A DNA stretch of 64,000 nucleotides from an uncultured bacterium (GTDB lineage: Bacteria > Patescibacteriota > Minisyncoccia > Phycocordibacterales > UBA9973), in NCBI GenBank assembly GCA_903825255.1, contig CAIJZZ010000070.1, positions 8,767 to 72,766 of the forward strand, in the 5' to 3' direction. The notes below the pieces were generated by a model. The model saw nothing but the letters and a program-made list of their open reading frames with translations. It made no database searches and was not told the origin of the DNA. Positions 3,104 through 61,423 of this stretch are shown in pieces. Both the position numbers and the translations under genes were made by a program. Each line of letters starts with the position of its first letter. Position 1 is the first letter of the stretch.

Positions 3104-4268
3104 ATCAACTAAAAATATTGTTCTAGCCATTGTTGTTTGTTTAATTGTTATATCTATTTGGTATTTGGAATCAAAAAAGCCACAAATAAATTCCACTAGC
3201 TCGGATATTATTTTAAATAATATTATTAATAACGAAAATACAACTTCAACACCGAATACAAATATAAAAAATACAACTAAAAATACCAAAACAACACAAA
3301 ACATAATTTCAGATAGAACTGTTATTAGAACCCAAAAAGCAAAAGAATATCCTAGGGCTAAAGAACTATCCGATCCACAAGGTTTTATCAATACATCACC
3401 ATTTAAATTAGCTGATATCGTTGGAAAAAAGGTTGTACTAGTAGATTTTTGGACTTACAGTTGTATTAATTGCGTGCGAACTATCCCGTATTTAAATGCT
3501 TGGTATCAAAAATATAAAGACTTAGGTTTAGAAATTGTAGGTGTGCATACTCCTGAATTTGATTTTGAAAAAGATTATAATAACGTTTCAAAGGCCGTAC
3601 AACAATTAGGTATTAAGTACCCAGTTGTTCTCGATAGTAACCAAGGTACTTGGAATGCTTATCAAAATCTTTATTGGCCACATGAGTATTTAATAGATAT
3701 CGATGGTTTTATTGTTCACGATAAAATAGGCGAAGGTTCTTATGGTGAAACTGAAAAGAATATTCAAAAAGCATTACAAGAAAGAAATTTAACTTTAGGA
3801 ATTACAACCCCGATTCCAAATTCAATAGTAAATCCTCTCGATGTGATCACTATGGATCAATCAAAAGTTGAAAGTCCTGAAACCTATTTTGGTTCTACTA
3901 GAAATGAATATCTAGGGAATGGCCAAAAAAGTGTTTCTGGACTTCAAACGCTTTCAATTCCAAATGATATTCAATCAGATACTCTTTATCTTGATGGTAC
4001 TTGGAGTTTTCAAGATCAATATGCAGAAAATACTAGCAGTACTGCTAAAATTACATATAAATACAGTGCTAAGAATGTTTACTTTGTGGCAAGTTCAAAA
4101 AATGGAGTACCGATAAAAATATTTCAAGATGGAAAATTAATTAACACTATTACGATAAAAGACAATAAGCTCTACCCCCTTATTCAAGGAACTGATTATG
4201 GGGCACACACTTTACAAATAGAAGTTGATGGGGCTGGCTTGCAAGCTTTTACTTTCACTTTTGGTTAA
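3096..4268 (+). CDS. membrane-anchored thioredoxin-fold oxidoreductase (DipZ C-terminal type)
   Basis: N-terminal TM, then an Asn/Thr-rich linker, then the redoxin core VVLVDFWTYSCINCVRTIPYL (CxxC) and a beta-rich C-terminal extension. The start overlaps the ccdA stop by 8 nt. Confidence 0.8.
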   Translation: MNKSTKNIVLAIVVCLIVISIWYLESKKPQINSTSSDIILNNIINNENTTSTPNTNIKNTTKNTKTTQNIISDRTVIRTQKAKEYPRAKELSDPQGFINTSPFKLADIVGKKVVLVDFWTYSCINCVRTIPYLNAWYQKYKDLGLEIVGVHTPEFDFEKDYNNVSKAVQQLGIKYPVVLDSNQGTWNAYQNLYWPHEYLIDIDGFIVHDKIGEGSYGETEKNIQKALQERNLTLGITTPIPNSIVNPLDVITMDQSKVESPETYFGSTRNEYLGNGQKSVSGLQTLSIPNDIQSDTLYLDGTWSFQDQYAENTSSTAKITYKYSAKNVYFVASSKNGVPIKIFQDGKLINTITIKDNKLYPLIQGTDYGAHTLQIEVDGAGLQAFTFTFG

Positions 4269-4270
4269 AA

Positions 4271-4331
4271 AATAGTGTTATAAGGCTCTCGGGTAATTTC
4301 TTTTAAACACTTGGTTCGAAGTTCATAGGGT
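4271..4331 (+). repeat. conserved ~60-nt upstream motif, copy 2 (upstream of msrA)
   Basis: AATAGTGTTATAAGGCTCTCGGGTAATTTCTTTTAAACACTTGGTTCGAAGTTCATAGGGT is the second copy of the 2173-2233 motif. Confidence 0.7.
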
Positions 4332-4359
4332 GTAGAATTTCAAATTAAAATTTAATTGA

Positions 4360-4374
4360 TATAATATATATATG
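4360..4374 (+). promoter_or_regulatory. -10 box placed for a leaderless transcript
   Basis: TATAAT (4360-4365), then 6 nt, then ATG at 4372. The TA-rich run makes the exact register ambiguous. Confidence 0.45.
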
Positions 4375-4859
4375 ACTAAAAAAATTGTATTAGCAGGAGG
4401 CTGTTTTTGGGGACTTCAAGATCTAATGAGGAGTCAACCTGGAGTCGTTAAAACTGTGGTTGGTTATACGGGTGGAAAAGTAGAAAATCCAACTTATGAA
4501 AATCATGAAGGTCACGCGGAAGCAGTAGAAATAGAATATGATACTGAAAAAACTTCTTATAAAAAAATGTTGGATTTTTTCTTTCAAATTCATAACCCAA
4601 CAACTTTAAATCAGCAAGGCAATGATAAAGGAACGTCATATCGTTCGGCAATATTTTATGGTAATGAAGAAGAAAAAAAGAAGCTGAAAATTTTATAAAA
4701 ATTGTGAATGATTCTAAGCGCTGGAAAGATCCTGTGGTTACAAGTTTAGAACCCTTAGGGAAATTTTATTTAGCCGAAGATTATCATCAAGATTATTTAC
4801 AAAAAAACCCTGGAGGTTATACTTGTCACGCTATTTATTTCGATAGTTATTTAAAATAA
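4372..4859 (+). pseudogene. msrA: peptide-methionine (S)-S-oxide reductase MsrA, reading frame interrupted at an A7 run
   Basis: The N-terminal part (GGCFWG motif) runs 4372-4698. The C-terminal part ([22 protein letters not shown]) continues in the -1 frame to the TAA at 4857-4859. The frames can only be joined within 4668-4695, around A7 at 4673-4679. Confidence 0.8.
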
Positions 4860-4949
4860 TTATTTTTTAAAAAATAACTTTTTAAATTGTTTATTAGTTT
4901 TTTAGAATTTATTTTTAATAAAACAAAAAATTTGTTACAATACTCGCTT

Positions 4950-6224
4950 ATGATGAATAAAATTAAAAGAACTTTTTTTTCACTTAAAATAAGAAATTAT
5001 AGACTTTATTTTATTGGTCAGGCTATTTCTATGTCTGGCACTTGGATTCAGACGATTGCTCAGGATTGGTTGGTCCTACAATTAACCCATTCAGGAACTC
5101 AGCTTGGTATTGTTTCCGCTTTTCAATTTTTACCAGTGCTTATCATTGGTCCATGGGGTGGGGTGATTGCTGATAGATTTTCAAAAAGAAAAATTTTATA
5201 TTTTACTCAAAGTATTTATAGTATTTTAGCTTTAATATTAGGTAGTCTTGTTTTGACCAATAGTGTTCAGATTTATGAGATTTATATTTTAGCTTTAGTG
5301 CTTGGTTTTGTTAATGTGGTTAATAGTCCGACTATCCAAACATTTATTCCGGAGATGGTAGGTAGAGAAAATTTACAAAATGCAGTTTCTTTAAATACGA
5401 CAGAAGTTAATTTAGCCAGAGCCGCCGGTCCAGCCTTGGCAGGTTTTTTGATTCTTTTTGTTGGTATTGGTTGGTGTTTTATTATTAATGGAATTTCTTA
5501 TATTGCGGTAATGACTGCTTTTTATATGATGCGAGAAAAGGAATTACATTTAACTCCAATTGTTCAAAAAAGGAAAGGGCAATTGATTGAGGGCTTGCGT
5601 TATGTTCGTTCAAATCCAATTCTTTTTAATACGATTTTAATGATGGCTATTATTGGAACTCTTTCATATGAATTTTCTGTGATACTACCATTAATCGCTC
5701 AATATACTTTTTATAGTAATGCTGGAAGTTATGCAGCACTCGTGACTGCTACAGGGCTCGGGGCAGTGCTAGGTGGATTGTTTGCTGCTAGTCGAAAAAA
5801 AATATCACCAGATATGCTTATTATTTCTGCTTTTGGTTTTGGTGTATCTTTAACTATTGCTTCTTTTATGCCGACTCTTCCACTAATGATTATTGTTATG
5901 TTTTTTTCTGGAATTTTTTCTATAAATTTTATTTCTTTAGGGAATATAACTTTGCAAACAGAAAGCAAACCAGAAATGCGGGGGAGGGTCATGGCCCTTT
6001 GGGCTGTAGCTTTTTTGGGTTCTACACCAATCGGGGCGCCGATCATAGGCTGGATTGGACAGAATATCGGGCCACGTTATGGACTTGCCTTGGGAGGTAT
6101 GGCGGCAATAGTGGCAGCGATGATTGGAAAATTTTCTATTGTTCGTAAAAATGAAATACATATTGTTTCTAGTGAAGAAAAAATATTAGAAAATGAAATA
6201 GAAAAACAAATAAGTTTGAAATAG
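4950..6224 (+). CDS. MFS transporter (EntS/MFS_3-like)
   Basis: 12-TM-like profile. The N-terminus RNYRLYFIGQAISMSGTWIQ and GPWGGVIADRFSKRK are typical of this MFS subgroup. I prefer the ATG at 4950 over the TTG at 4887. Confidence 0.85.
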   Translation: MMNKIKRTFFSLKIRNYRLYFIGQAISMSGTWIQTIAQDWLVLQLTHSGTQLGIVSAFQFLPVLIIGPWGGVIADRFSKRKILYFTQSIYSILALILGSLVLTNSVQIYEIYILALVLGFVNVVNSPTIQTFIPEMVGRENLQNAVSLNTTEVNLARAAGPALAGFLILFVGIGWCFIINGISYIAVMTAFYMMREKELHLTPIVQKRKGQLIEGLRYVRSNPILFNTILMMAIIGTLSYEFSVILPLIAQYTFYSNAGSYAALVTATGLGAVLGGLFAASRKKISPDMLIISAFGFGVSLTIASFMPTLPLMIIVMFFSGIFSINFISLGNITLQTESKPEMRGRVMALWAVAFLGSTPIGAPIIGWIGQNIGPRYGLALGGMAAIVAAMIGKFSIVRKNEIHIVSSEEKILENEIEKQISLK

Positions 6225-6240
6225 AATTTAATTAAAATCT

Positions 6241-6278
6241 TTGACAATAAGATTTCTTTGTGTTATCATAAGAGTATG
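6241..6278 (+). promoter_or_regulatory. sigma70-like promoter placed for a leaderless transcript
   Basis: TTGACA (6241-6246), 17-nt spacer, TATCAT (6264-6269), 6 nt, then ATG at 6276. Confidence 0.6.
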
Positions 6279-14880: not shown

Positions 14881-15306
14881 ATGGCAAAAAAAATAACCAA
14901 AAAAATAAAACTACAAATTCAAGCCGCTAAAGCAACACCTGCACCACCGTTAGGACCTGCTTTAGGTCAAGCTGGTATTAATATAGGTGATTTCGTCAGT
15001 AAATTCAACGCTGCCACTGCTAAGATGGCTGGAGATAAGGTTTCTGTCGTGGTTTCAGTTTACGAGGATCGCAGTTATGATTTTGTTGTAAAAACTCCTC
15101 CAGTTTCTGGTCTTATTTTTAAAGCAGCTGGGGTTGAAAAAGGTTCAGGCAAAAATACTGTTACTAAAGCTGGAAAAATAACCAAAGCACAAGCTAAAGA
15201 AATAGCTCTTAAAAAGATGACTGATTTAAATGCAAAAGACATAGAAGGGGCAATTCGGATTGTGGCTGGTTCTGCTCGGTCCGCTGGTATAGAAGTTAAA
15301 GACTAA
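14881..15306 (+). CDS. rplK: 50S ribosomal protein L11
   Basis: [26 protein letters not shown] is the L11 signature. Length is 141 aa. Confidence 0.95.
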
Positions 15307-15321
15307 ATTTAATTAAATTTA

Positions 15322-15969
15322 ATGCAACAATTCACAGAAAAAGATTATAAAAAAATTCTGATCTGTTTAACTCTTTATTTAAGTTCACTTTTTGCAGCAA
15401 ATACCTTAGGCTTAAAACTTATGCCTTTTCTTTTTGGCACACATCTTTCGGTGGCAGTTTTTTGTTTTCCAATTGTTTTTATTATGACCGATGTAATTGG
15501 AGAAGTTTATGGAAAAAAAATGGCTAAGAATTTCGTTTATGCTGGAATCTTAAGTATTTTTTTATTTTTGCTTTATTCTTTTATTTCAATGATTATGCCT
15601 TGGGCACAAGTGAGTCTTTGGGCTAAAGATGGATATAATTTAGTTTTTGGTATTTCTGTTCGTTTTTCTATAGCATCGATCATTGCTTATGCGATAGGTG
15701 AATATCAGGATGTTATTTCTTTTTTCTTTTTTAAAAAATATACCGGTGGAAAAATGTTTTGGTTACGTTCGAATTTATCTAATCTCTGGTCGCAATTGAT
15801 CGACTCCACTATTTTTATGTTTATTGCTTATTTAGGGCTAATGCCAGTAAAAACCATATTATTGATTATAATTCCATGGTGGCTCTATAAAGTGTTTATG
15901 GGATTTTTATATACCCCACTTTCTTATGTTGGAATACATCTTTTAAGAGATAAAAATGTTCAAAACTAA
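15322..15969 (+). CDS. VUT-family (YhhQ-like) queuosine-precursor/vitamin uptake transporter
   Basis: FPIVFIMTDVIGEVYG, AYAIGEYQDV and WSQLIDSTIFMFIAY align by eye to the E. coli YhhQ motifs. The profile suggests 6 TM. Confidence 0.8.
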   Translation: MQQFTEKDYKKILICLTLYLSSLFAANTLGLKLMPFLFGTHLSVAVFCFPIVFIMTDVIGEVYGKKMAKNFVYAGILSIFLFLLYSFISMIMPWAQVSLWAKDGYNLVFGISVRFSIASIIAYAIGEYQDVISFFFFKKYTGGKMFWLRSNLSNLWSQLIDSTIFMFIAYLGLMPVKTILLIIIPWWLYKVFMGFLYTPLSYVGIHLLRDKNVQN

Positions 15970-16489
15970 TAAGATAAAATATACTGCCTATGTAGCAGCA
16001 AGTATTGATGGACGTATTGCTAAAGATAGTCATAGCTTAAATACTTGGACAAGTGAAGAAGATTGGAATTTTTTTCAGCATGCTATTTCTAAGGTAGATG
16101 TTGTTGTAGTTGGAATGAATACTTATAAGGTTGTTGAAAAAAGATTAAAAAAACGTAAAACAATTGTTTTTTCTTCTAAATACAATTCGATAAAAACTAT
16201 CGGTTCAGTCACTTTTTTAAATCCAGCGAAAATAAATTTTCAAAAATTTATAAAACAAAATGATTTTAGAAATGTTGCTATTCTAGGTGGTCCAATGGTA
16301 TATACTTATTTTCTTCAAAATAAAATACTAAATGAACTTTTTGTGACTATCGAACCATGTGTTTTCACCACAGGAACCCCTATGTTTTCAGGTATAAAAT
16401 TTAAAAAACATAAATTTATTTTACAATCAGTAAAAAAACTTAATCAAAATGGAACCCTTTTGTTAAAATATAAAAACAATGCAAATTAA
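15956..16489 (+). CDS. RibD_C/DHFR-like reductase family protein
   Basis: YVAASIDGRIA, VVVGMNTYK and ILGGPMVYTYFL...ELFVTIEP fit the family pattern. The start overlaps the previous gene by 14 nt. Confidence 0.7.
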   Translation: MFKTNKIKYTAYVAASIDGRIAKDSHSLNTWTSEEDWNFFQHAISKVDVVVVGMNTYKVVEKRLKKRKTIVFSSKYNSIKTIGSVTFLNPAKINFQKFIKQNDFRNVAILGGPMVYTYFLQNKILNELFVTIEPCVFTTGTPMFSGIKFKKHKFILQSVKKLNQNGTLLLKYKNNAN

Positions 16490-17210
16490 AGCAATCAAAA
16501 CTGAGATTTTTAAAGAGAATGAAGATTTAATAAAATTCATCTCTAAACACATAAAAAATATTAAAGAAGGTTCTATTTTAGTAATATCTTCAAAAATAGT
16601 TGCTTTATCTGAAGGTAGAGTAGTTTCTAATTTAAATATTAAAGCTAAAGAAAAGTTAATTAAAATAGAAAGTGATTTAGCGATTAAAACCAAACTAGTC
16701 TGGTTTACCATTAAAGACGATATGGTTATGGCTTCAGCGGGTATTGATGAGTCAAATGGAAATGGTAGACTCATCCTTTTACCTAAAAATAGTTTTGATT
16801 CGGCAGAGTTAATTCTTAAAAAAATTAAAAAAATATTTAAAGTTAAAAAATTAGGCATTTTAATAAGCGATAGTGGGATACTTCCTTTACGAGCAGGAGT
16901 GATCGGTGTGGCAATAGGTTATGCTGGTTTTCAAGGAGTTAGGGATTATCAAGGGATGCTAGATATTTTTCGTAGGAATTTGGAATTTTCGAGAACTGAT
17001 GTTGCAGACAGCCTAGCGACTGGAGCGACCTTTTGCATGGGTGAAGGGAATGAAAGACAACCACTTGCTATAATTACAGATGCACCAGTTATTTTTAAAC
17101 AAAAAACAGATAGAAAAGAATTGATCATGAATAAAAAACAAGATATATATGCCCCACTTTTTAAAAATTTAAAAGTAAAAAAACACAAAAATAATGATAA
17201 AAAAAAGTAA
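16479..17210 (+). CDS. CofE-like (F420-0:gamma-glutamyl ligase family) protein
   Basis: VISSKIVALSEGR, ASAGIDESNGNG, ILISDSGILPLRAGVIGVAIGYAGF and ADSLATGATFCMGEGNERQP are present. It overlaps the upstream gene by 11 nt. Confidence 0.8.
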   Translation: MQIKAIKTEIFKENEDLIKFISKHIKNIKEGSILVISSKIVALSEGRVVSNLNIKAKEKLIKIESDLAIKTKLVWFTIKDDMVMASAGIDESNGNGRLILLPKNSFDSAELILKKIKKIFKVKKLGILISDSGILPLRAGVIGVAIGYAGFQGVRDYQGMLDIFRRNLEFSRTDVADSLATGATFCMGEGNERQPLAIITDAPVIFKQKTDRKELIMNKKQDIYAPLFKNLKVKKHKNNDKKK

Positions 17211-18222
17211 AAAATTTCAAACACCGTATTTAACTAATCTTATTTTAAAGCTAGCTCCTAAAATCGGAGCGAAAGTTTTAGTTGAATCAGAATGGAAAAT
17301 TGCTGGGCAAATAATTTATCCTAATGGTGTAGTCCGTTCACTTCGTATGTATTCCTTAGATTTAAATCATATTGCTTCGGCTGATATTGCCCGCGACAAG
17401 GATTTTGCTAAATTTTTTATGAAAAAAAAGGGCTATCCTATAGCAGAAGGAAAAACATTTTTTGAAAAAAATTGGGCCAAAATAGTGAAAAGTGATAGAA
17501 CGATTATTTCTGCAGATAAATATGCCAAAATGCTTGGTTATCCTGTTGTGGTGAAACCTAATAGTAAAAGCCAAGGCTCAGGGGTGTGTGTTGCTTTTAA
17601 TAAAAAAGAATTAAATAGCGCAATACTAGAAGTTTTTAAAGGTGATAAAGTAGCTATCGTTGAGCGATATTTACCAGGACATGATTATAGAGTTGTCGTT
17701 TTAGATGGGGAAATAATTTCTGCTTATGAAAGAATCCCATTATCTATAAAAGGAGATGGAAAAAGCTCAATCTTATCACTATTGAAACAAAAACAGAAAT
17801 ATTTTATTTTAAGTAAAAGAGATACCAGATTGAATTTTAATGATCGAAGAATTCAACTGAAATTAAAAAAAGCTGGTCTTACTCTTAAAAGTATTTTACC
17901 AAAAAACCTTGAGCTATTTTTATTAGACAATGCAAATTTATCTACAGGTGGGGATTCAATAGATGTTACAAAAACCATACATAATAACTTTAAAAAAATC
18001 GCAGTAAGACTTACTAAAGATATGGGGCTGCGCATAGCTGGAGTAGATATAATGGTAACTGAAGGAGATATCACTAAAAATCCCGAAAATTGTAAATATT
18101 ATATTATTGAAATAAATGCAGCCCCCGGACTAGATCACTATGTGACGACAGGGGAGGTGCAGAAGAAAAAAGTTGAAGCAATGTATTTGAAGGTTTTAAA
18201 AGCACTCGGGAAAAAAGATTAA
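17194..18222 (+). CDS. ATP-grasp ligase (RimK/cyanophycin-synthetase-like)
   Basis: GYPVVVKPNSKSQGSGV, ERYLPGHDYRVVVLDGEI, NLSTGG and AGVDIM..YIIEINAAPGL form the ATP-grasp core. It overlaps the upstream gene by 17 nt. Confidence 0.75.
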   Translation: MIKKSKKFQTPYLTNLILKLAPKIGAKVLVESEWKIAGQIIYPNGVVRSLRMYSLDLNHIASADIARDKDFAKFFMKKKGYPIAEGKTFFEKNWAKIVKSDRTIISADKYAKMLGYPVVVKPNSKSQGSGVCVAFNKKELNSAILEVFKGDKVAIVERYLPGHDYRVVVLDGEIISAYERIPLSIKGDGKSSILSLLKQKQKYFILSKRDTRLNFNDRRIQLKLKKAGLTLKSILPKNLELFLLDNANLSTGGDSIDVTKTIHNNFKKIAVRLTKDMGLRIAGVDIMVTEGDITKNPENCKYYIIEINAAPGLDHYVTTGEVQKKKVEAMYLKVLKALGKKD

Positions 18223-18255: not shown

Positions 18256-18270
18256 TATATTTAAAGTATG
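18256..18270 (+). promoter_or_regulatory. -10 box placed for a leaderless transcript
   Basis: TATATT (18256-18261), then 6 nt, then ATG at 18268. Confidence 0.45.
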
Positions 18271-18597
18271 ATAGATTTAAATAAAATACAAAAAGAGATA
18301 ATGCGCAATAAAATAGAAAAAGGTTTTAATACCACTGATGTGGCTCTTGAATTTTGCCGGGCTCATGAAGAACTTTCTGAAGCTTTTTCAAAATTTAATA
18401 AAAATCAAGATGGTGTAGCTGAAGAATTTGCTGATGTGGCTATTTTTTTATTTGGTATGGCTGAAATTTTAGGTTTCGATTTAGAAAAAGAATTGGTTCG
18501 AAAAGTTAAAATTAATAAAAATCGCAAATATAAAAAATTAAAATCTCCAGACGGAAAAGATATTTTTATTAGAATTAAAACAAAAATAGATCCTTAA
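18268..18597 (+). CDS. small MazG-type nucleotide pyrophosphohydrolase
   Basis: 109 aa. HEELSEA...EEFADVAIFLFGMAE matches the all-alpha NTP-PPase EExxE/D pattern. Confidence 0.7.
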   Translation: MIDLNKIQKEIMRNKIEKGFNTTDVALEFCRAHEELSEAFSKFNKNQDGVAEEFADVAIFLFGMAEILGFDLEKELVRKVKINKNRKYKKLKSPDGKDIFIRIKTKIDP

Positions 18598-18600
18598 AAT

Positions 18601-18623
18601 AAAATCCCCAGCTGGGGATTTTA
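18601..18623. terminator. bidirectional intrinsic terminator
   Basis: AAAATCCCC-AGCT-GGGGATTTT lies between the convergent MazG-like gene and folA. Confidence 0.7.
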
Positions 18624-19139
18624 TTTTTTGATATATTCAGCAAATTCTATATCATAAATATTTAAATCATCTTTAGAATGTTTTTCACTTCTTATTTTTT
18701 GCCATTTCGTCTCTTCAATAATAGGGAAGTATACTTCGGCGTCAGAGAAAGAAGCATCTACGTGAGTAATGTAGAGTTTATCCACTCTGTCAATGAACAA
18801 TTTATAAATCATTCCGCCACCAATCACAAAATTTTCTTCGTTCTGGTTTTCAGTTTTTAGTTTGTTTTCTAATTCTTCTATTGAATGAAAAATCTCTATG
18901 CCTTCACGGTAAAAAGTTGGGTCTTGAGTAAGTACAATATTTCGACGATTTGGTAATGTTTTTCCTAGTTTGCCATCAGGGCCAATACCTAAGGATTCAA
19001 AAGTTTTTTGACCCATAATAATAGTGTGTCCACGAGTAGTATCCCGAAAGTGTTTCATGTCCGCAGGTAAATTCCAAAGAAGGTCATTCTTCTTGCCGAT
19101 TTCATTATTTTTACCAATAGCTACAATAATTGAAAGCAT
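18621..19139 (-). CDS. folA: dihydrofolate reductase
   Basis: IVAIGKNNEIGKKNDLLWNLPADMKHFRDTTRGHTIIMGQKTFESLG and VIGGGMIYKLF are DHFR signatures. Confidence 0.9.
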   Translation of the reverse strand: MLSIIVAIGKNNEIGKKNDLLWNLPADMKHFRDTTRGHTIIMGQKTFESLGIGPDGKLGKTLPNRRNIVLTQDPTFYREGIEIFHSIEELENKLKTENQNEENFVIGGGMIYKLFIDRVDKLYITHVDASFSDAEVYFPIIEETKWQKIRSEKHSKDDLNIYDIEFAEYIKK

Positions 19140-19140: not shown

Positions 19141-19989
19141 TTATTTTATAATCTCTAAGCCTGTAATTGGTTCACCTGGATTAAAATAAGGGGCAAATGC
19201 TTGATATATTTCATCCACTAAATTTTCATCTCTTTTTTCTGCTCTATCAAAAATATTTTCTGGTAAAATTGGAAAAATATTTTCATGTGTATTCTTTCTT
19301 TGAATTAATTCCAGGGCTCCTTCATAATGAGTGTCATATATATGAGCATTGGAAATAGTATGTGTATATATTCCAGGGCGTACTTCTAATTTTTGGGCTA
19401 GTGTATACATCAATAAACTAAAACCAAAAGTATCAAAAGGACATCCCAGCATCATATCATTAGAACGAATAATGTTGTGTAAATGTAATCGTCCACCAAC
19501 AATATTTACTGTGAAAGCAAAAGGGCACGGAGCATTTTTTTTATAAGTTGCTTTCAAATTTGTTCCATATAAACCATCATCTGCTGGATCCCAGGTTATT
19601 ACCACCCCCTGTCTCGAATGTGGTTCTTCTTTTAAATGTTTGATTAATTGACCGAGTTGGTCTCTTCCGAAATGATGTCTCCAGCGATAACCATAGGCTG
19701 AGGTTATCGTACCATCTTCTTCAATAAATTGGTCCCACATTTTAGTATATTTTCTTAAAAATTCTGTATTTTTATCACCAGTGATAAACCAAACCTGTTC
19801 AGCGATAGGTGATTTTATTGGATTTTTTCGTAGAGTTAAGATTGGGAAACCCTCTTTTTCAACATCAATTTGAAAAGTAAGACCAGGTAATATTTTTATT
19901 TTATGTCCAGTACGTTCATTTAATTCCTCAATACCTTCTTCCATTATTTTTTTTATCAAATTTTGATAGATTGTGTCAAAAGTAGTCAT
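19141..19989 (-). CDS. thymidylate-synthase-family (ThyA-like) pyrimidine C5-methyl/hydroxymethyl transferase with Asp at the Asn specificity position
   Basis: ERTG, EQVWFITG, YGYRWR, catalytic Cys in NAPCPF, IIRSND and NAHIYDTH are present. LGCPFDTFGF replaces the canonical LGLPFNIASY. The stop is 1 nt from the folA start. Confidence 0.85.
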   Translation of the reverse strand: MTTFDTIYQNLIKKIMEEGIEELNERTGHKIKILPGLTFQIDVEKEGFPILTLRKNPIKSPIAEQVWFITGDKNTEFLRKYTKMWDQFIEEDGTITSAYGYRWRHHFGRDQLGQLIKHLKEEPHSRQGVVITWDPADDGLYGTNLKATYKKNAPCPFAFTVNIVGGRLHLHNIIRSNDMMLGCPFDTFGFSLLMYTLAQKLEVRPGIYTHTISNAHIYDTHYEGALELIQRKNTHENIFPILPENIFDRAEKRDENLVDEIYQAFAPYFNPGEPITGLEIIK

Positions 19990-20018: not shown

Positions 20019-20543
20019 ATGCCAAGCAATAATAAAAATATTAAATATCCATATTTACCAGAAGGAAAAGATATATTATATGTTCCGATTTCTGATAAAT
20101 ATATGGCTCGAGCTAAAGAAGTCGCTCGTGGTTCAAATGACCAAAGTATTCCTACTGGGGCTGTGATTGTTTCTGACGGAAAAATTATAGCTGAAGCTTC
20201 AAATAAAACACCATTATCAAATCCATTTTTAAAAAAATTACATGCAAAGTATTGCATAAGAAGAATGTTTAAAATACCTTCAGGTCAAAAATATTGGATT
20301 TGTCCTGGTTGTGCTTCGCATGAAAATCATGGAGAATATAGGGCAGTAGTTATGTTTCAAAAAAAGATAAAGGAAGTTAATTCTCCTTGTGATTTATATT
20401 TATGGGGACATTGGTGGTGTTGTAAGCCTTGTTGGGATAAGATGTTGGAACTTCCAGTACGAAATGTTTATTTATTAGAAGGAAGCGAAATATTATTTAA
20501 TTCTAATAATCCTGATAATTTAATCGGAAAACAATTTAAGTAA
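20019..20543 (+). CDS. cytidine/deoxycytidylate deaminase-fold zinc protein (divergent)
   Basis: AKEVARGSNDQSIPTGAVIVSDGKIIAEASN opens the CDA fold. HGE (in ENHGEYRAV) stands in place of HAE. CCKPCWDKM supplies the PCxxC motif. Confidence 0.6.
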   Translation: MPSNNKNIKYPYLPEGKDILYVPISDKYMARAKEVARGSNDQSIPTGAVIVSDGKIIAEASNKTPLSNPFLKKLHAKYCIRRMFKIPSGQKYWICPGCASHENHGEYRAVVMFQKKIKEVNSPCDLYLWGHWWCCKPCWDKMLELPVRNVYLLEGSEILFNSNNPDNLIGKQFK

Positions 20544-20544: not shown

Positions 20545-20982
20545 ATGAAAAAGAAACTTTATATTGGTTGCAGTCTTACTCTTCTTCCAAATAACAAGAA
20601 AGAAGAATTTTTGAAAATGATTTCTAAAATAAAAAAAGAGTTGGATAAAAATTTTGAAATTTTAGAATTTTTAGGAATAAATGATCTTGAAACTACTCAT
20701 CCATATACTCCGAAGGAGATTTACGATTATGATATTAGAAAATGTGTTATGAAAGCTGATTGTATGCTCGCATTTTGTGATTATCCTTCTATTGGTCTCG
20801 GTTATGAGATGGCGACTGCCGTTGAAAAATTAGGTATTCCTGTATTAGCAGTGGCACACAAAGATCAAATAGTTGGTAGGATTATCAGAGGTATCGATCA
20901 GAAAAATTTTGAATTTAGGTATTATGATTCAATCGAAGAAATTATAGATAAAACAATAGAAAAATTTGACAAAATTATGTGA
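20545..20982 (+). CDS. nucleoside 2-deoxyribosyltransferase-like protein
   Basis: KLYIGCSL start and ADCMLAFCDYPSIGLGYEMATAVEKLGIPVLAV resemble the Nuc_deoxyrib_tr family layout, including the conserved Glu. Confidence 0.5.
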   Translation: MKKKLYIGCSLTLLPNNKKEEFLKMISKIKKELDKNFEILEFLGINDLETTHPYTPKEIYDYDIRKCVMKADCMLAFCDYPSIGLGYEMATAVEKLGIPVLAVAHKDQIVGRIIRGIDQKNFEFRYYDSIEEIIDKTIEKFDKIM

Positions 20983-24130: not shown

Positions 24131-25009
24131 ATGCAGACAGATGAAAATTGGATTAAGAAATTTAGGCTTCTAATTCTTGTTGTTTTCCTTTTAGTTTGTG
24201 TTACTTTTCTTTTTTACTTAGATTGGCAAGAATCCCATAAGGAGTTTACTTTTGCAGTGTTGGATATAGGTCAAGGAGATGCTCTTTTTATAGAGTCTCC
24301 GACTGGTGTGCAAATACTCGTCGATGCTGGACCGACAAAAAAAGTTTTGAATGAATTATCAAAAGTAATGTCACCATTTGATCGCAGCCTAGATGCAATT
24401 ATTATGACGCACCCAGACCAAGATCATATTGGTGGATTTGCGGATGTTTTGAAATATTATAAAGTAGGGGAAGTTTTCGAACCAGGAATCTTAACTGATT
24501 CAAAAACTTATCAAAATTTAGAGGTAGAAATACAGAAGAAAAAAATCCCAGATATTTTAGCGCGCCGCGGAATGCGGTTAGATTTAGGTGGGGGAGCAGT
24601 GCTAGATATTTTATTTCCAGATCGAGATGTCTCTGCTTGGGAAACAAACGAAGGTTGTATTGTCGCACGTCTTTCATATGGTGATATCTCTGTGATGTTG
24701 ACTGGGGATGCACCGATTAAAACAGAAAAAATAATTTTGAGTGAAAATAAAAGCGAACAACTCAAAAGTACTATTTTAAAAGCTGGACACCATGGTTCGC
24801 GTACTTCTACTTCACAAGAATTTTTACAAGCTGTAAATCCAGAATATGCTTTAATTTCTGTTGGAAAAGATAATAAATATGGTCATCCACACCAAGAAGT
24901 ATTAGACCTTTTGAATAAATTTAAAGCTCAAATTTTACGAACGGATCTGCTCGGCACAATAATAATGAAATCTGACGGAGATATGTTAAAATGGAAATAT
25001 GCAAGATAA
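24131..25009 (+). CDS. ComEC/Rec2-type metallo-beta-lactamase domain protein (MBL domain only, one TM)
   Basis: VLDIGQGDALFIE, IMTHPDQDHIGG, MLTGDA, KAGHHGSRTS and YGHPH match the ComEC C-terminal nuclease-like domain. No channel domain is present. Confidence 0.8.
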   Translation: MQTDENWIKKFRLLILVVFLLVCVTFLFYLDWQESHKEFTFAVLDIGQGDALFIESPTGVQILVDAGPTKKVLNELSKVMSPFDRSLDAIIMTHPDQDHIGGFADVLKYYKVGEVFEPGILTDSKTYQNLEVEIQKKKIPDILARRGMRLDLGGGAVLDILFPDRDVSAWETNEGCIVARLSYGDISVMLTGDAPIKTEKIILSENKSEQLKSTILKAGHHGSRTSTSQEFLQAVNPEYALISVGKDNKYGHPHQEVLDLLNKFKAQILRTDLLGTIIMKSDGDMLKWKYAR

Positions 25010-26243
25010 AAAAGTAGAAAAACTTATTAAAAGTGAGGCAAAAAGACAAGCAGAGGGCTTGGAACTTATTCCTTCTGAAAACTATGTTTCAGAAGATGTA
25101 TTAAAAGCGAATGGTTCTATTTTTACTAATAAATATTCAGAAGGTTATCCAGGTCGTAGGTATTATGGTGGACAGGAATTTACTGATCAAGTTGAGAGAT
25201 TGGCGATAGAAAGAGTTTGTAAACTTTTTAATTGTAAATTTGCGAACGTTCAGCCTCATTCTGGTGCTCCAGCCAACTTAGCAGTTTATGCAGCGCTTTT
25301 ACAGCCGGGGGACACGGTACTTGGTATGGATTTATCGCACGGTGGACATTTGACGCATGGACATCCGATGACCTTACCAGCGAAGATTTATAAATTTGTG
25401 ACTTATAAAATGAAAGATCCTGATACAGGAGAGATTGATTATGAGGATCTTCGTCGGGTAGCACTTCTGACAAAACCAAAAATAATTTTAGCTGGTTTCT
25501 CAGCTTACCCTCGAACCCTAGACTATAAAAAATTCGTAGAAATTGCCCATGAAGTGGGGGCAGTCACGATGGCAGATATGGCGCATATCGCTGGACTTAT
25601 CGCAGGCAAAGCACTGCGCAATCCATTCGATGATGGTTTTGATATTATCACTTCTACGACGCATAAAACTTTACGTGGTCCGCGTGGAGGCATAATACTC
25701 ACTCGAGAAAACGAAGAGATCGCGAAGAAAATTGATAAAGCTATTTTCCCTGGTATTCAAGGTGGTCCGCATATGCATATCATTGCCGCCAAGGCTGTGG
25801 CTTTTGGTGAAGCTTCAACTCCGAAATTTAAAATATATGCAAAACAGATTCTTAAAAATGCTAAAGCCATGGAACAAGTTTTCAAGAAAAATAATATCCG
25901 AATGATTGGTGGTGGCACAGATAACCATTTAATATTAGCGGATGTTTTCGGCTCATTGGGTGTGACAGGCAAAGAAGCACAGACAGTTCTCGATGAAGTT
26001 GGAATCACGCTTAATATGAATTCAATTGCGGGGGACACTAGAAAACCACTTGATCCTTCTGGTATTAGATTTGGCACACCAGCTATAACGACTAGAAGAT
26101 TTAAAGAGAAAGAATGTAAACGCGTAGCGGAGCTTATGATTCTGACCCTTAAGAACAAAAATGATAAGAAGGTTAAAGAAGCAGTGCATAAAGAAATTAA
26201 AAAATTAGCCAAAAAATTTCCAATACCAAAGAAATTTGTATAA
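24999..26243 (+). CDS. glyA: serine hydroxymethyltransferase
   Basis: ELIPSENYVS, RYYGG, VQPHSGAPAN and TSTTHKTLRGPRGG (PLP lysine) are present. Confidence 0.95.
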   Translation: MQDKKVEKLIKSEAKRQAEGLELIPSENYVSEDVLKANGSIFTNKYSEGYPGRRYYGGQEFTDQVERLAIERVCKLFNCKFANVQPHSGAPANLAVYAALLQPGDTVLGMDLSHGGHLTHGHPMTLPAKIYKFVTYKMKDPDTGEIDYEDLRRVALLTKPKIILAGFSAYPRTLDYKKFVEIAHEVGAVTMADMAHIAGLIAGKALRNPFDDGFDIITSTTHKTLRGPRGGIILTRENEEIAKKIDKAIFPGIQGGPHMHIIAAKAVAFGEASTPKFKIYAKQILKNAKAMEQVFKKNNIRMIGGGTDNHLILADVFGSLGVTGKEAQTVLDEVGITLNMNSIAGDTRKPLDPSGIRFGTPAITTRRFKEKECKRVAELMILTLKNKNDKKVKEAVHKEIKKLAKKFPIPKKFV

Positions 26244-26893: not shown

Positions 26894-27601
26894 ATGGTAA
26901 AAAAAATAAAGCATAAAGGTAAGTTAATAGTAATTGATGGAATAGACGGAAGTGGGAAAACCACTCAAATAAATTTATTAACAAATAAATTAAAAGCTGA
27001 TGGGTTTAAAGTTAAAATTGTTCATTTTCCTAATTATGATAATTTTTTTGGTGCTTTTATAGGGCACTGTTTAAGTGAACAATATTATAATTTTCTTAAT
27101 GTCCATCCTAAAATAGTTTCAGTTCTTTATGCAGCCGATAGGTGGGAGTCTGGAGAACAAATAAAAAAAATGCTAAAAGAAGGATATATCGTTGTTCTTG
27201 ATCGATACGTAAGTGCAAATCAAATTCATCAAGGGGGAAAAATAAAAAGTGCAAAAAAAAGAGCTAGTTTTATAAAGTGGCTTAATCAAATGGAATATGA
27301 GGTTTTTAAAATTCCAAAACCAGACTTAACTTTATATTTAAATTTACCGATTAATATTGTTTTAGAACTTTTGAAAAAACGTGAAAGTAGTAAGATAAAA
27401 AGAGAATATTTAAAGAAAGGTAAAAAGGATGTGCATGAGGCAGATGTGAATTTTTTAATTAATTCACGTAAAAGCGCCTTAAAACTCGTAAAGGAAATCC
27501 CAAATTTTATAAAAATTGAGTGCTCAAAAAAAGGCGAGATTCTATCACGAGAAAATATTCACGAAATGGTTTATGGAGAAGTTAAGAGGATTTTAAAATA
27601 A
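26894..27601 (+). CDS. tmk: thymidylate kinase
   Basis: P-loop VIDGIDGSGKTTQ and the DRY-like LDRYVSAN motif. Confidence 0.88.
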   Translation: MVKKIKHKGKLIVIDGIDGSGKTTQINLLTNKLKADGFKVKIVHFPNYDNFFGAFIGHCLSEQYYNFLNVHPKIVSVLYAADRWESGEQIKKMLKEGYIVVLDRYVSANQIHQGGKIKSAKKRASFIKWLNQMEYEVFKIPKPDLTLYLNLPINIVLELLKKRESSKIKREYLKKGKKDVHEADVNFLINSRKSALKLVKEIPNFIKIECSKKGEILSRENIHEMVYGEVKRILK

Positions 27602-28024
27602 ATGAAAATAAAAATTAAAAAATTAAAAGAGAATGCGAAGCTGCCGAAATATCATCATCCCGGGGATGTTGGGATGGATATGTATGCGATGGAGACAAAA
27701 ACTATGCAACCAGGAGAGCATTATCGTTTCTGGCATGGTTTTGCGCTAGAATTTCCCGAAGGTTATGGAGCTTTTGTGATGGACAAAAGTAGTATTTCAA
27801 AAATTGGGCTACATCAAATAGGGGGAATTTTTGATGCTGGGTATCGGGGAGAATACAATACTTTATTGGTAAATTTATCAGATAAGCCGTATACTTTTGA
27901 AGAGGGAGATAAGGTTTCACAGCTTGTGATTATGCCTGTAGTTATTGGAGAATTAGAGGAAGTTGATGAGCTAAGTGAATCAGCCCGTGGAGAAGGAATG
28001 TTTGGGAGTACAGGAAAAAAGTAA
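27602..28024 (+). CDS. dut: dUTP diphosphatase
   Basis: GDVGMDMYA, GIFDAGYRGE and the C-terminal RGEGMFGSTG are present. Confidence 0.9.
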   Translation: MKIKIKKLKENAKLPKYHHPGDVGMDMYAMETKTMQPGEHYRFWHGFALEFPEGYGAFVMDKSSISKIGLHQIGGIFDAGYRGEYNTLLVNLSDKPYTFEEGDKVSQLVIMPVVIGELEEVDELSESARGEGMFGSTGKK

Positions 28025-59083: not shown

Positions 59084-59119
59084 TATTTGTTTTATTATAA
59101 AAATTAATTAAAAAATATT

Positions 59120-59734: not shown

Positions 59735-59752
59735 TGATATAGTAAATAAATG
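59735..59752 (+). promoter_or_regulatory. extended -10 promoter placed for a leaderless transcript
   Basis: TGaTATAGT (59735-59743), then 6 nt, then ATG at 59750. Confidence 0.55.
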
Positions 59753-61423
59753 GAAAAAATCGCTTTTATTTCTGTTTATAATAAAGAAGGAATTGATAAA
59801 TTTGCCAAGGATTTAATTGATTTGGGCTGGAAAATAATGTCTTCAGCTGGTACGGCTAAATATCTAAAAGATAAAGGAATCGAAGCTATGGATTTGACTG
59901 ATTTTGTCGGAGCACCGATTTTCGGACACAGAGTGGTTTCTTTATCGCGAGAATTTTATGCGATGCTTTTAGCTAGGAGGGAGGTTAAAGAAGATATGGC
60001 AGAGCTTCAAAAATTAAAATTACCTCTTATTTCACTTGTTTGTTGTGATATGTACCCACTGATAGAAGAAATAAATAAAGAGGGTTCGACCCTTGAAGGA
60101 GTGATTGAAAAGACAGATATTGGTGGGCCGACGATGTTACGAGCAGCAGCGAAGGGAGGTCGTATCGTAGTTTGCGATCATGATGATCGCGAAAAAGTAA
60201 TTGAATATTTAAAAAATGACAAAAAAGACGAACAGCAAGATAAAAATTTTATAAAAATGCTTGCCGCTAAAGCAGAGTTCACAGTAGCGAAATATTGTAT
60301 GGCTTCAGCAGAGTATTTAAGTGAGAAATCTTATAAAGGAATTTTAGGTGAATTGTCGGATAATTGTTGTTATGGCGAGAATGCTTACCAAAACCCTTCA
60401 GCTTTATATGAAATTAATGATAGTCCCTCGGCCATAGACCTACGGGCGAGGCCATTTAGTCCGACTAAATTTAAGCTTTTGACTGAGACCCCACTTTCTT
60501 ATAATAATTTTTGTGATCGAGATAAAATAATTCAAACTTTAACCCATATGGCAGCTGGCTGGGAATTAAATTTTAAAAAGCCAATTCCTTTTATGGCCGT
60601 GGCCGTAAAACATGGTAATGCCTGTGGTTTTGGTGTAAGTCACGATAAAATGGATGCGCTTAAAAAAATGATTGAAGGAGATGTAAAAGCAATTCACGGT
60701 GGCTCTATTTTTACTAATTTTAAAATAACAGAAGAAGAAGCTGAAGAATTGATTCATTATAAAATGCCTGAAGGGGGGAGGAGACTTTTAGATACAGTTA
60801 CGGCTCCTTTTTTTAATCATGAAGCAATAGAGATTTTGGCTCGTAAAAAAGGGAAATGTAGAATTGTGGTTAATAAAAATCTCGATAATCTTAAAGGAGA
60901 ATCTCTTGACCGAGAAAATCGTTTTCGTTATGTGCGAGATGGATTTTTAGTTCAGCCGAATTATACTTTTGTGCCAAATTTTAAAGAAGCTGTAATTGAA
61001 GGTGATAGCTCAATAATTGAAAAAGAAAAAGTTTGTTTAGATTTGATTTTAGCTTGGGCGATCGGTTGTACGAGTAATAGTAATACTATCACAATAGTGC
61101 GGGATGGTAGATTACTAGGTAATGGAGTTGGTCAGCAGGATAGAGTGGGAGCAGCAAAGCTTGCAATCGCGCGAGCGGATGATGCATATATCGCTTTAAC
61201 TGGAGAGGATTCTAAGGCCAATCTAGAGAATGCTATTGTTTATAGTGATAGTTTTTTTCCTTTTTCAGATGGACCGAAAGTGCTGATCGATCGAGGTATT
61301 AAAATTATTTTTGCCACATCTGGTTCGGTACATGATAAAGAAGTGATAAAAGACTGTCTAGCGGAAGGAGCTACCTTAGTAATGTTTCCGGACAAAACAA
61401 GTCGTGGTTTTGCTTGGCATTAA
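59750..61423 (+). CDS. purH: bifunctional AICAR transformylase / IMP cyclohydrolase
   Basis: MGS-like N-terminus (IAFISVYNKEGIDKFAKDL), then GGPTMLRAAAKG, YGEN, LSYNN and the C-terminal SRGFAWH-type end. Confidence 0.92.
   Translation: MEKIAFISVYNKEGIDKFAKDLIDLGWKIMSSAGTAKYLKDKGIEAMDLTDFVGAPIFGHRVVSLSREFYAMLLARREVKEDMAELQKLKLPLISLVCCDMYPLIEEINKEGSTLEGVIEKTDIGGPTMLRAAAKGGRIVVCDHDDREKVIEYLKNDKKDEQQDKNFIKMLAAKAEFTVAKYCMASAEYLSEKSYKGILGELSDNCCYGENAYQNPSALYEINDSPSAIDLRARPFSPTKFKLLTETPLSYNNFCDRDKIIQTLTHMAAGWELNFKKPIPFMAVAVKHGNACGFGVSHDKMDALKKMIEGDVKAIHGGSIFTNFKITEEEAEELIHYKMPEGGRRLLDTVTAPFFNHEAIEILARKKGKCRIVVNKNLDNLKGESLDRENRFRYVRDGFLVQPNYTFVPNFKEAVIEGDSSIIEKEKVCLDLILAWAIGCTSNSNTITIVRDGRLLGNGVGQQDRVGAAKLAIARADDAYIALTGEDSKANLENAIVYSDSFFPFSDGPKVLIDRGIKIIFATSGSVHDKEVIKDCLAEGATLVMFPDKTSRGFAWH
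60424..60452 (+). repeat. probable family B GC-rich element, copy B5 (in frame inside purH)
   Basis: TCCCTCGGCCATAGACCTACGGGCGAGGCC shares CTACGG..GCGAGGCC with the ileS copy. It encodes SPSAIDLRARP in a segment ~8 aa longer than the E. coli PurH equivalent. Confidence 0.45.

Follow-up and report, generated by a model that had tools for sequence, protein, structure and literature searches.

A recurrent four-gene block beside a thymidylate island is a probable folate acquisition-and-retention module of a Patescibacterium

Which cofactor is served by four overlapping genes that encode a membrane transporter, a reductase, a glutamyl ligase and an ATP-grasp ligase? Their host is a tiny lake-water bacterium (Patescibacterium), and we analysed a 64-kb stretch of its DNA (hereafter, the window). 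The four open reading frames, all on the plus strand and all starting with ATG, span positions 15322-18222; the first ATG is 15 nt past the stop codon of rplK (ribosomal protein L11, 14881..15306, plus strand), a conserved upstream neighbour, and the last gene is followed by a T-rich gap of 45 nt. The genes encode a VUT/QPTR-family (COG1738) membrane transporter (215 aa, 15322..15969), predicted to import a folate-type compound; a second dihydrofolate reductase (DHFR2, 177 aa, 15956..16489), similar to that of Thermotoga maritima; a gamma-glutamyl ligase with a CofE fold and of FolC2 type (243 aa, 16479..17210), a predicted folylpolyglutamate synthetase; and a stand-alone ATP-grasp amino-acid/peptide ligase of the cyanophycin-synthetase-G/GshAB clade (342 aa, 17194..18222), a folate-linked accessory. 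Consecutive frames overlap by 14, 11 and 17 nt, and such tight overlaps suggest translational coupling. The coordinates and overlaps were exact in the first-pass annotation, and its family assignments hold in Pfam: Vut_1 for gene 1 (PF02592, E = 4e-39), RibD_C (1.5e-14) and DHFR_1 (4e-9) for gene 2, F420_ligase for gene 3 (PF01996, 1e-35) and several ATP-grasp models for gene 4.

The block is followed by a gene for a MazG-like nucleotide pyrophosphohydrolase (18268..18597, plus strand; PF12643, 7e-7), which is found 3' of the module again in most related loci and belongs to a thymidylate island. The island continues with canonical folA (18621..19139, minus strand; PF00186, 5e-52) and thyA (thymidylate synthase, 19141..19989, minus strand; PF00303, 1e-54; TIGR03284 at 122 bits, passing the cutoff of 108), the adjacent pair that had already been pointed out, and with a gene for a dCMP/cytidine deaminase-family protein for dUMP supply (20019..20543, plus strand; PF00383, 4e-10). 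Further along the plus strand are glyA for serine hydroxymethyltransferase, which provides 5,10-methylene-THF (24999..26243; PF00464, 2e-153), tmk and dut for thymidylate kinase and dUTPase (26894..28024; PF02223, 3e-25; PF00692, 1e-21) and purH for the folate-dependent AICAR transformylase/IMP cyclohydrolase (59750..61423; PF01808, 1e-43). The folate users within the window are thus thyA, folA, glyA and purH. No folC, folP, folK, cof, fbi, tgt or que gene was found in the window, which bears out the earlier remark that F420 biosynthesis genes are missing nearby.

For comparison we drew on other Patescibacteria species, with about 317 loci that were sampled by anchoring on the module genes themselves and in which Paceibacteria/Nomurabacteria predominate. 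Where folC, folate biosynthesis or tgt is called absent, this refers to the 64-kb window and the ~10-kb flanks of these 317 loci. Because the gene order and the overlap types recur in other species, the four-gene arrangement is more than chance: the DHFR2/CofE-like junction is always -11 or -4 nt, the VUT/CofE-like junction mostly -20 to -35 nt and the CofE-like/ATP-grasp junction mostly -14 to -29 nt. The recurrent block is modular, with a membrane protein (VUT or a second family, M240), an optional DHFR2, the CofE-fold ligase and an optional ATP-grasp ligase, and its usual setting is the thymidylate island (dCMP deaminase, MazG, folA, thyA) with glyA, tmk and dut close by. The dCMP deaminase family is the second commonest unlabelled neighbour (78 unique members), and ThyX is present at a locus where folA and thyA are absent (L183).

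The linkage was counted from several anchors. The CofE-like gene is directly downstream of VUT in 68 of 76 VUT-anchored loci and still in 22 of the 29 without rplK context; it accompanies DHFR2 in 71/80 DHFR2-anchored loci (40/49 of those without rplK context), and VUT adjoins in 56 of the 80 CofE-like-anchored loci. A folate gene is located at most 3.5 kb from the ATP-grasp gene in 64 of 80 ATP-grasp-anchored loci. Linkage is retained in shuffled orders as well, namely VUT>DHFR2>CofE, ATPg>M240>DHFR2>CofE, glyA>folD>ATPg><CofE and ATPg><folA thyA>glyA. The expected co-occurrence of the four genes in relatives was therefore found as linkage but not as an obligate set: the core of the module is the membrane protein plus the CofE-like ligase, and the reductase and the ATP-grasp ligase are accessory.

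The CofE-like protein is a member of the PF01996 superfamily (123.6 bits against a cutoff of 25) and contains the motifs named in the first-pass annotation, SKIVALSEGR (residues 38-47), AGIDESN (87-93) and MGEGNERQP (187-195). Its top model is TIGR04132 ('putative folate metabolism gamma-glutamate ligase') with 203 bits, compared with 133-136 bits for the CofE models. Because 203 bits do not reach the trusted cutoff of 350, the protein is placed as a sister or related subfamily of FolC2 rather than as a strict member. The CofE equivalog assignment was rejected (TIGR01916, 133 against 181 bits; NF009809, 136 against 274 bits). The best PDB match is Af-CofE, whose metal and nucleotide motifs are retained: D90, D131/S132 and E189, which we take to be the metal ligands, are invariant and align to D109, D150/T151 and E208. 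The chromophore contacts of Af-CofE are F92, G153-C155 and, from the partner subunit, R234 (PMC10861534). They correspond to L73, I134-L135-P136 and M217 in a pairwise HMMER alignment, that is, at the level of sequence, and are not kept. The protein and CofE (or the N-domain of FbiB), the F420-0:gamma-glutamyl ligase, have in common the fold, the catalytic core and, by prediction, gamma-glutamylation via an acyl-phosphate, but differ in the deazaflavin-holding residues and in their neighbours, which here are all folate/thymidylate genes. A search of the window and of the neighbour families that recur at related loci gave no cofC, cofD, cofG or cofH gene.

The CofE-like ligase, which has more than 2,600 homologs, goes by the name 'coenzyme F420-0:L-glutamate ligase' in databases, and at the related loci its gene is associated with folate genes. 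A Mur-ligase FolC was not found in the window and occurs only once among the 317 loci: at this locus (L231), a canonical FolC (TIGR01499, 300 bits against a cutoff of 163) lies between DHFR2 and the ATP-grasp ligase, in the CofE-like slot. The cofactor of the module is folate and not F420 or another deazaflavin, because TIGR04132 is the best model, the F420 contacts are unconserved, FolC stands in its place in L231, and its partner genes include thyA, folA, glyA and folD. The earlier proposal of a folate/pterin-like or deazaflavin cofactor is thereby narrowed to its folate half, and the ligase itself very probably acts on folate. There is a precedent, to which the first-pass annotation had correctly referred: CT611/FolC2 of Chlamydia complements an E. 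coli folC mutant (PMC1971073). With FolC2/CT611 of Chlamydia trachomatis (TIGR04132; COG1478) the ligase shares the CofE fold, the best-scoring curated family, the predicted replacement of FolC, the folate-gene setting, a reduced genome and no F420 pathway in view. However, the chlamydial gene lies with folKP, folA, folX and pABA synthase in an operon for folate synthesis de novo, whereas the ligase studied here stands in a salvage context, with a transporter, a second DHFR and an ATP-grasp ligase as its coupled partners.

For gene 2, the best PDB match is T. maritima DHFR (TmDHFR, 1cz3; E = 2.6e-23, 33% identity) over the full length (residues 13-173 against 7-162), and the PF00186 cutoff is passed (36.8 against 25). 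Orthologs keep W31, D36 and G111-G112 without exception, and F39 almost without exception; W31/D36 equal W22/D27 of the T. maritima and E. coli enzymes, and F39/F40 correspond to F31. The gene thus in all likelihood codes for a DHFR, and of the earlier label 'RibD_C/DHFR-family reductase' the DHFR half stands, refined to a DHFR of Thermotoga type. A RibD C-terminal pyrimidine reductase was rejected (23-36 bits against cutoffs of 150-186); only the broad PF01872 passes. In common with the Thermotoga enzyme (PDB 1CZ3/1D1G), DHFR2 has full-length homology, the catalytic Trp, Asp and Phe and the GG motifs; unlike it, DHFR2 comes in addition to a canonical FolA and is linked to a transporter and a ligase, not to thyA.

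We propose that the block is probably a folate acquisition-and-retention module that supplies the thymidylate cycle next to it in a Patescibacterium auxotrophic for folate. An exogenous folate-type compound would be imported by the VUT-family protein or, in other lineages, by the S-component-like M240 in the VUT slot. The Thermotoga-type DHFR, judging from homology and the conserved catalytic residues, would reduce folate or DHF to THF with NADPH. The FolC2-type ligase would then add one or more gamma-linked glutamates, as homology, context and the displacement by FolC suggest, which would trap the cofactor in the cell and raise its affinity for ThyA, GlyA and PurH. More speculatively, a further amino acid would be placed onto the glutamate tail, probably by the ATP-grasp ligase; its relatives activate peptides at the C-terminal alpha-carboxylate. 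GlyA, ThyA and FolA would cycle the cofactor, with dUMP coming from dCMP deaminase, Dut and MazG. The salvage-reduce-glutamylate logic of the first-pass annotation is upheld by the reciprocal conservation of the neighbourhood across many Patescibacteria lineages and by the FolC2 precedent.

The ATP-grasp step has the most plausible competitor. The ligase could instead make or modify a different peptide-like product, such as a glutathione-like thiol, a cyanophycin-like polymer or a modification of the cell wall or of a ribosomal protein, and share no more than synteny with the island. In NCBIfam and the PDB it matches the G domain of CphA and the C-terminal domain of GshAB best, Foldseek concurs, Ddl is among its nearest relatives, and the Mg/ATP motifs (KPNS..., E306-x-N308) are invariant. 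In about 20 species it follows rplK beside folA/thyA with both VUT and the CofE-like gene absent at the locus, so its dependence on the CofE-like ligase is not strict; a search for fusions to folate enzymes found none, and 16 of the 80 anchored loci have no folate gene nearby. On the other hand, off the rplK synteny the gene still lies beside FolC and DHFR2 (L231), glyA-folD (L232) or folA-thyA-glyA (L225, L237), and it is convergent with the CofE-like gene in L221, L233 and L234. The protein also has no counterpart of GshA, the other part of GshAB, and of the three domains of a full cyanophycin synthetase (CphA, about 870 aa; N, ATP-grasp G and Mur-ligase M) it has only G, the one that aligns (query 59-333 against 197-460 of 879-909 aa; 180 against 850 bits). 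In databases the ligase, with more than 3,100 homologs, is mislabelled 'cyanophycin synthetase', and a D-Ala-D-Ala ligase was rejected too (Ddl HMMs at most 59 bits against cutoffs of at least 243). We regard an unrelated peptide-like product as rather unlikely, and action on the folate tail as a tentative assignment. The comparison with CofF held for an ATP-grasp ligase as such but failed for the type: CofF, MptN and RimK models score 33 against 300, 38 against 350 and 56 against 143 bits. CofF and MptN, alpha-L-glutamate ligases acting on F420 and tetrahydromethanopterin, also extend a cofactor-tail or peptide carboxylate with an amino acid by ATP-grasp chemistry; the analogy is functional at most, since the ligase of the window is nearest to CphA-G and GshAB by sequence and fold.

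A second question is whether the VUT protein is an ordinary preQ0/preQ1/queuine transporter that shares the operon, with genes 2-4 alone folate-related and folate entering otherwise. The protein passes the cutoff of TIGR00697 ('queuosine precursor transporter', NCBIfam; 122 bits against 51) and resembles QPTR/YhhQ (COG1738) in Pfam/TIGR family, six-TM architecture and predicted solitary operation, and the characterised members of the family all carry 7-deazaguanines, the queuosine precursors (PMC5372724, PMC11130926). At one locus (L305), a VUT ortholog 65% identical to that of the window is directly downstream of queG, with a cobalamin adenosyltransferase gene as well; it is orthologous to the CofE-linked VUTs, not a separate paralog. 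Furthermore, tgt and queA are present in at least one Patescibacterium (L235). Yet this queG neighbour is the only one in about 80 VUT-anchored loci, a frequency within chance expectation, whereas 119 of 127 unique VUT orthologs are linked to the CofE-like gene, usually by overlapping stop and start codons, and this linkage persists where all other synteny is lost. The window contains no tgt or que gene and no Rfam match, the preQ1 riboswitch included. The protein shares only 25% identity with E. coli YhhQ, and the E. coli-type model NF008406 gives 49 bits against a cutoff of 252. Moreover, exactly the VUT slot is occupied in 25 of 149 unique modules by M240, an unannotated ~235-aa membrane-protein family unrelated to VUT (hhalign probability 0.2%), which is labelled as an ECF S component in UniRef and has ThiT, RibU, BioY and FolT as its weak top fold matches. 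We thus consider a queuosine-precursor transporter unlikely; the VUT protein may well carry a folate-type substrate.

Less probable still is that the ATP-grasp ligase is a folate glutamate ligase able to replace the CofE-like enzyme and would thereby represent a third class of DHFS/FPGS, one of ATP-grasp type. This would explain the lineages that have only the ATP-grasp gene beside folA/thyA, and it would suit both the remnant locus in which VUT and the CofE-like gene have decayed while the ATP-grasp gene is intact (L188) and the better conservation of the ATP-grasp ligase (70-79% identity, against 60-68% for the CofE-like protein), but at most loci it occurs together with a CofE-like ligase or FolC, and this speaks for a separate step. 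Salvage and glutamylation of a deazaflavin (Fo/F420-0) or another non-folate cofactor by a true F420:glutamate ligase and a RibD-type pyrimidine reductase, as the top Pfam matches (PF01996, PF01872) and the database naming would have it, is highly improbable in view of the sub-cutoff CofE and RibD models, the lost chromophore contacts, the full-length TmDHFR match, the replacement by FolC, and neighbours that are thyA, folA, glyA, folD and thyX, with no cof gene found in the window or among the families that recur at related loci.

The proposed folate acquisition-and-retention module has a counterpart in the FolT-FolC salvage of Firmicutes, where the S-component of a folate ECF transporter is clustered with folC. 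Both would follow one logic, with a small vitamin-binding membrane protein beside an enzyme that traps the vitamin by polyglutamylation; in the module, VUT or M240 stands in for FolT, the CofE fold for the Mur-ligase fold, and no EcfA/EcfT genes are near. FolC2-based folate metabolism is already known, and the roles of two of the four proteins appear to be new for their families. A bolder reading is doubtful: an undescribed salvage route in which VUT has switched from 7-deazaguanines to folate/pterin, or M240 serves in this role, and the CphA-G/GshB-type ATP-grasp is a new folate-tail ligase (adding an alpha-linked or non-glutamate residue, or a third FPGS type) that yields an uncatalogued folate derivative. 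In the literature searched, we found no description of how Patescibacteria acquire or retain folate.

Patescibacteria (CPR) make up a large share of bacterial diversity, have tiny genomes and obtain vitamins from other cells. The module provides two candidate families of folate transporters, one through a change of specificity within the queuosine-precursor transporter family and the other the unannotated M240, as well as a candidate widespread FolC2-type ligase that is mislabelled as an F420 enzyme in databases and a candidate second DHFR dedicated to salvage. The ATP-grasp ligase may create an unrecognised modification of the folate tail. Correcting these annotations removes errors that would otherwise wrongly imply F420 and cyanophycin metabolism in these organisms.

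The four genes described in the first-pass annotation were recovered exactly where it had placed them, right after rplK on the forward strand: the VUT transporter (15322–15969, 215 aa), the Thermotoga-type reductase DHFR2 (15956–16489, 177 aa), the CofE-like ligase (16479–17210, 243 aa) and a stand-alone ATP-grasp ligase (17194–18222, 342 aa). All four start with ATG and overlap successively by 14, 11 and 17 nt; the rplK stop codon lies 15 nt before the first ATG, and beyond the last gene comes a T-rich spacer of 45 nt. The four family assignments were upheld by Pfam and NCBIfam. The G+C content of the window is ~32%, its sequence is present in four lake-water metagenome DNA runs and in no RNA run, and the close homologs of the module proteins all come from Patescibacteria/CPR MAGs (e.g., Nomurabacteria and Paceibacterota). 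The module takes the usual place of rplA after rplK (14881–15322); no Ribosomal_L1 domain was found within the window, and rplJ-rplL are located at 58601–59485, 43 kb from rplK. In one relative (L321), rplA is present near rplK.

For each module gene as an anchor, we fetched loci from 80 GTDB species and labelled their ORFs by phmmer with the window proteins as queries. Co-occurrence in relatives, by which the first-pass annotation had proposed to judge the block, was thereby assessed from each of the four anchors. VUT was adjacent to the CofE-like gene in 56 of 80 loci, and the CofE-like gene lay within 3.5 kb of DHFR2 in 71 of 80, nearly always directly downstream. Outside the rplK neighbourhood, DHFR2 kept the CofE-like gene in 40 of 49 loci. 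From the VUT anchor, the CofE-like gene was just downstream in 68/76 loci (22/29 without rplK), and a folate gene was found within 3.5 kb of the ATP-grasp gene in 64/80. The exact four-gene order is shared by at least six other species in the CofE-like-anchored set and by further ones in the other anchor sets. The overlaps are conserved across loci, with the DHFR2/CofE-like junction always at −11 or −4 nt. In Uhr-, Taylor-, Doudna-, Komeili-, Kerfeld-, Buchanan-, Gracili- and Peribacteria, the order is altered yet the linkage is retained. Examples from distant lineages (> and < give strand direction, ATPg is the ATP-grasp gene and M240 a membrane protein in the VUT slot) are ATPg>M240>DHFR2>CofE-like; glyA>folD>ATPg><CofE-like; ATPg><folA thyA>glyA; and <thyA CofE-like>DHFR2>dut>tmk. 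That the linkage persists despite such shuffling is the strongest argument for a role of all four families in folate metabolism. At one locus (L001:2637–4066), a bAvd and reverse transcriptase (RVT_1) pair lies between the SIMPL gene and secE; it resembles a diversity-generating retroelement that has entered immediately ahead of the conserved secE-nusG-rplK-module block.

Downstream of the module, the window carries a MazG-like gene, the folA and thyA genes noted earlier as neighbours, and a dCMP deaminase gene, followed farther on by glyA, tmk and dut, with purH at 59.7 kb. A thymidylate cycle that depends on THF is clearly in operation in this organism. A Pfam search of all sizeable ORFs in the 64-kb window found no Mur-ligase FolC, FolP, FolK, FolB, FolE, Tgt or Que protein and, in agreement with the first-pass annotation, no Cof/Fbi protein; folate synthesis genes and a canonical FPGS are thus not in view within the window. 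An Rfam gathering scan of both strands of the same 64 kb gave zero matches to any RNA family, tRNAs included, and we therefore conclude that it contains no riboswitch. At L183:3294–4649, a 451-aa ThyX-family protein (PF02511) is encoded and folA and thyA are missing, which suggests a swap of ThyA and FolA for ThyX within the same island. The loss of folA is expected here, because ThyX does not generate DHF. The locus pairs L023/L168 and L051/L182 also have no folA-thyA. Elsewhere in the window, a 145-aa ORF after the dCMP deaminase gene (20545–20982) has no Pfam or NCBIfam match and has homologs in the same position in several relatives (L042, L075, L094, L166, L171 and L196). In an isoleucyl-tRNA synthetase-like protein of 1167 aa (32080–35583), the class I synthetase catalytic domain is interrupted by a histidine-phosphatase domain (PF00300, aa 519–683, E 6e-26). 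An msrA-like ORF (4372–4698) encodes only 108 aa matching positions 1–106 of the 153-position PMSR model, and may be truncated.

The VUT protein scores above the cutoff of the NCBIfam model named 'queuosine precursor transporter', shares only 25% identity with E. coli YhhQ and gave no match in a sequence search of the PDB. It could be an ordinary transporter of queuosine precursors, as the published VUT/QPTR substrates are only preQ0, preQ1 and queuine (PMC5372724, PMC11130926), and as locus L305 has a QueG gene 108 nt ahead of a VUT 65% identical to that of the window (3919–6254; queG-like with QueG_DUF1730 and Fer4_16, then VUT, then a convergent cobalamin adenosyltransferase gene). This is the sole queuosine-type context found for the orthologous group in ~80 loci; one such neighbour is within chance expectation, and we therefore retain the queuosine-precursor transporter as a rival that we consider rather unlikely. 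A separate queuosine-type paralog was rejected, since in an NJ tree the seven unlinked VUTs, that of L305 among them, are interspersed with the CofE-linked orthologs. As regards import of a folate-type compound by VUT, the antifolate LY231514 is described as an inhibitor of TS and DHFR in which the 7-deazaguanine (pyrrolo[2,3-d]pyrimidine) skeleton replaces the pterin (PMC2062799). This skeleton provides a chemical rationale for a shift in VUT specificity.

When the unlabelled neighbours were clustered without bias, a family of membrane proteins of ~235 aa, M240, emerged, encoded at L140:2878–3600 and 35 other loci outside the window (e.g., L010:3907–4614, L090:4271–5008 and L126:4256–5014), always immediately upstream of DHFR2/CofE-like and in loci without VUT. 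Of the 149 unique CofE-like genes whose flanks were adequate, 105 are preceded by VUT, 25 by M240 and 19 by neither; no recurrent candidate for a third transporter family was found upstream of these 19. By sequence, M240 matched nothing in Pfam, NCBIfam or the PDB, and its 1,721 homologs are nearly all 'hypothetical', one UniRef entry being named 'ECF transporter S component'. Mean column identity is 76–79%, with many polar residues invariant. M240 is not a divergent VUT (hhalign probability 0.2%). The low-confidence structure model (pLDDT 57.5) had vitamin S-components (ThiT, RibU, BioY and FolT) as all of its top 14 Foldseek matches, at E ≥ 0.05, which is only suggestive of an S-component fold. 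A small membrane protein, VUT or M240, thus opens the module in most cases, which fits an import step. In locus L231, the usual slot of the CofE-like gene between a DHFR2-type gene and the ATP-grasp gene is occupied by a bona fide FolC (TIGR01499, 300 bits vs a cutoff of 163). This FolC and the replacement of VUT by M240 are two non-orthologous displacements.

The third gene encodes a protein of the CofE fold (PF01996) with an archaeal CofE, the F420-0:gamma-glutamyl ligase Af-CofE, as the top PDB match (E 3e-21), and it contains the motifs SKIVALSEGR, AGIDESN and MGEGNERQP quoted in the first-pass annotation. Its acidic metal-binding core shows no variation across the subfamily. The best curated family was TIGR04132 ('putative folate metabolism gamma-glutamate ligase'), which is the Chlamydia FolC2 type, with 203 bits vs 133–136 bits for the true CofE models. 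Since the protein scores below the trusted cutoffs of all three models, including the strict one of TIGR04132, we do not call it a family member but a FolC2-type CofE-fold ligase. FolC2 is its closest curated relative, and the ligase is predicted to work alike. The Chlamydia precedent named in the first-pass annotation is real: CT611 (FolC2) complements an E. coli folC mutant (PMC1971073), and the FolC2 annotation has been poorly propagated (PMC12506659). The residues F92, G153–C155 and R234 that clamp the deazaflavin in Af-CofE (PMC10861534) align with L73, I134-L135-P136 and M217. F420 salvage is rejected by these changes, the CofE scores below cutoff and the higher TIGR04132 score. Of the cofactors considered earlier, the deazaflavin is thus dropped, and narrowing of the substrate to folate is supported.

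The second gene product aligns along its whole length with Thermotoga maritima DHFR (1CZ3/1D1G; E 2.6e-23, 33% identity) and has hardly any similarity to the canonical FolA encoded next door. Across 18 orthologs, the residues corresponding to W22, D27 and the GG motif do not vary, and the one corresponding to F31 (F39/F40) is nearly invariant. The RibD models fell far short of their cutoffs, so that of the earlier 'RibD_C/DHFR-family' assignment the DHFR part stands and a generic RibD-type reductase is rejected. DHFR2 is split into two adjacent ORFs in L089/L179, as are VUT at L048:1997–2577 and the ATP-grasp gene at L006:1585–2428; these are frameshifts or assembly errors, not duplications.

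By sequence and predicted fold (structure model, pLDDT 78), the ATP-grasp protein is closest to cyanophycin synthetases 1 and 2, in their G domain, and to GshAB, in its C-terminal ATP-grasp; Ddl, RimK and LysX/ArgX come next. As it has none of the remaining domains of CphA and GshAB and low model scores, the labels 'cyanophycin synthetase' and 'D-Ala-D-Ala ligase-like' that databases give it are wrong memberships. Membership tests likewise rejected Ddl, GshAB and CofF/MptN; the CofF, MptN and RimK models scored far below cutoff, and the CofF analogy drawn earlier holds only as a functional likeness. A fusion search found ~640-aa tandem ATP-grasps and longer relatives with acylphosphatase domains and none fused to a folate enzyme, so that fusions do not help to assign the role. 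The sole module-gene fusion was a 400-aa ORF at L188:3820–5022 (= L288), joining VUT residues 1–190 in frame to CofE-like residues 58–235; this degenerate chimera has no SKIxALSEGR motif, and an intact ATP-grasp gene follows directly. It resembles what a deletion would leave behind during a transition to the ATP-grasp-only loci of ~20 species, in which the order is rplK>ATP-grasp>...<folA<thyA with neither VUT nor the CofE-like gene. Together, these loci show that the role of the ATP-grasp protein requires no CofE-like ligase in cis. The enzyme could act on tails that a FolC encoded elsewhere has made, serve as an FPGS analogue itself or have another substrate. At L235:1983–4276, a lone ATP-grasp gene is preceded at ~0.7 kb by queA and tgt, which are broken into two and four ORF fragments (frameshifts or pseudogenes).

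From the gene anatomy and linkage, which are the observed part, we infer the activities of the module: VUT would import a folate-type compound, DHFR2 would reduce oxidised folate to THF, the FolC2-type ligase would gamma-glutamylate and thereby trap it, and the ATP-grasp enzyme may then add another amino acid; the product would be used by GlyA, ThyA, FolA and PurH. Since polyglutamylation retains folates within cells and reduced folates are the preferred substrates of FPGS enzymes, the order transporter-reductase-ligase is sensible. FolT-FolC folate salvage in Firmicutes follows a parallel logic, whereas the proteins of the module are unrelated. The salvage-reduce-glutamylate reading of the first-pass annotation is thus supported by the multi-anchor linkage and the FolC2 precedent. 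Our literature search found no description of a CPR folate module, a VUT-folate link or M240. The module yields two hitherto unrecognised predictions, the specificity of the transporter and the function of the ATP-grasp enzyme, and corrects the names 'F420 ligase' and 'cyanophycin synthetase', which are widespread in the annotation of Patescibacteria.
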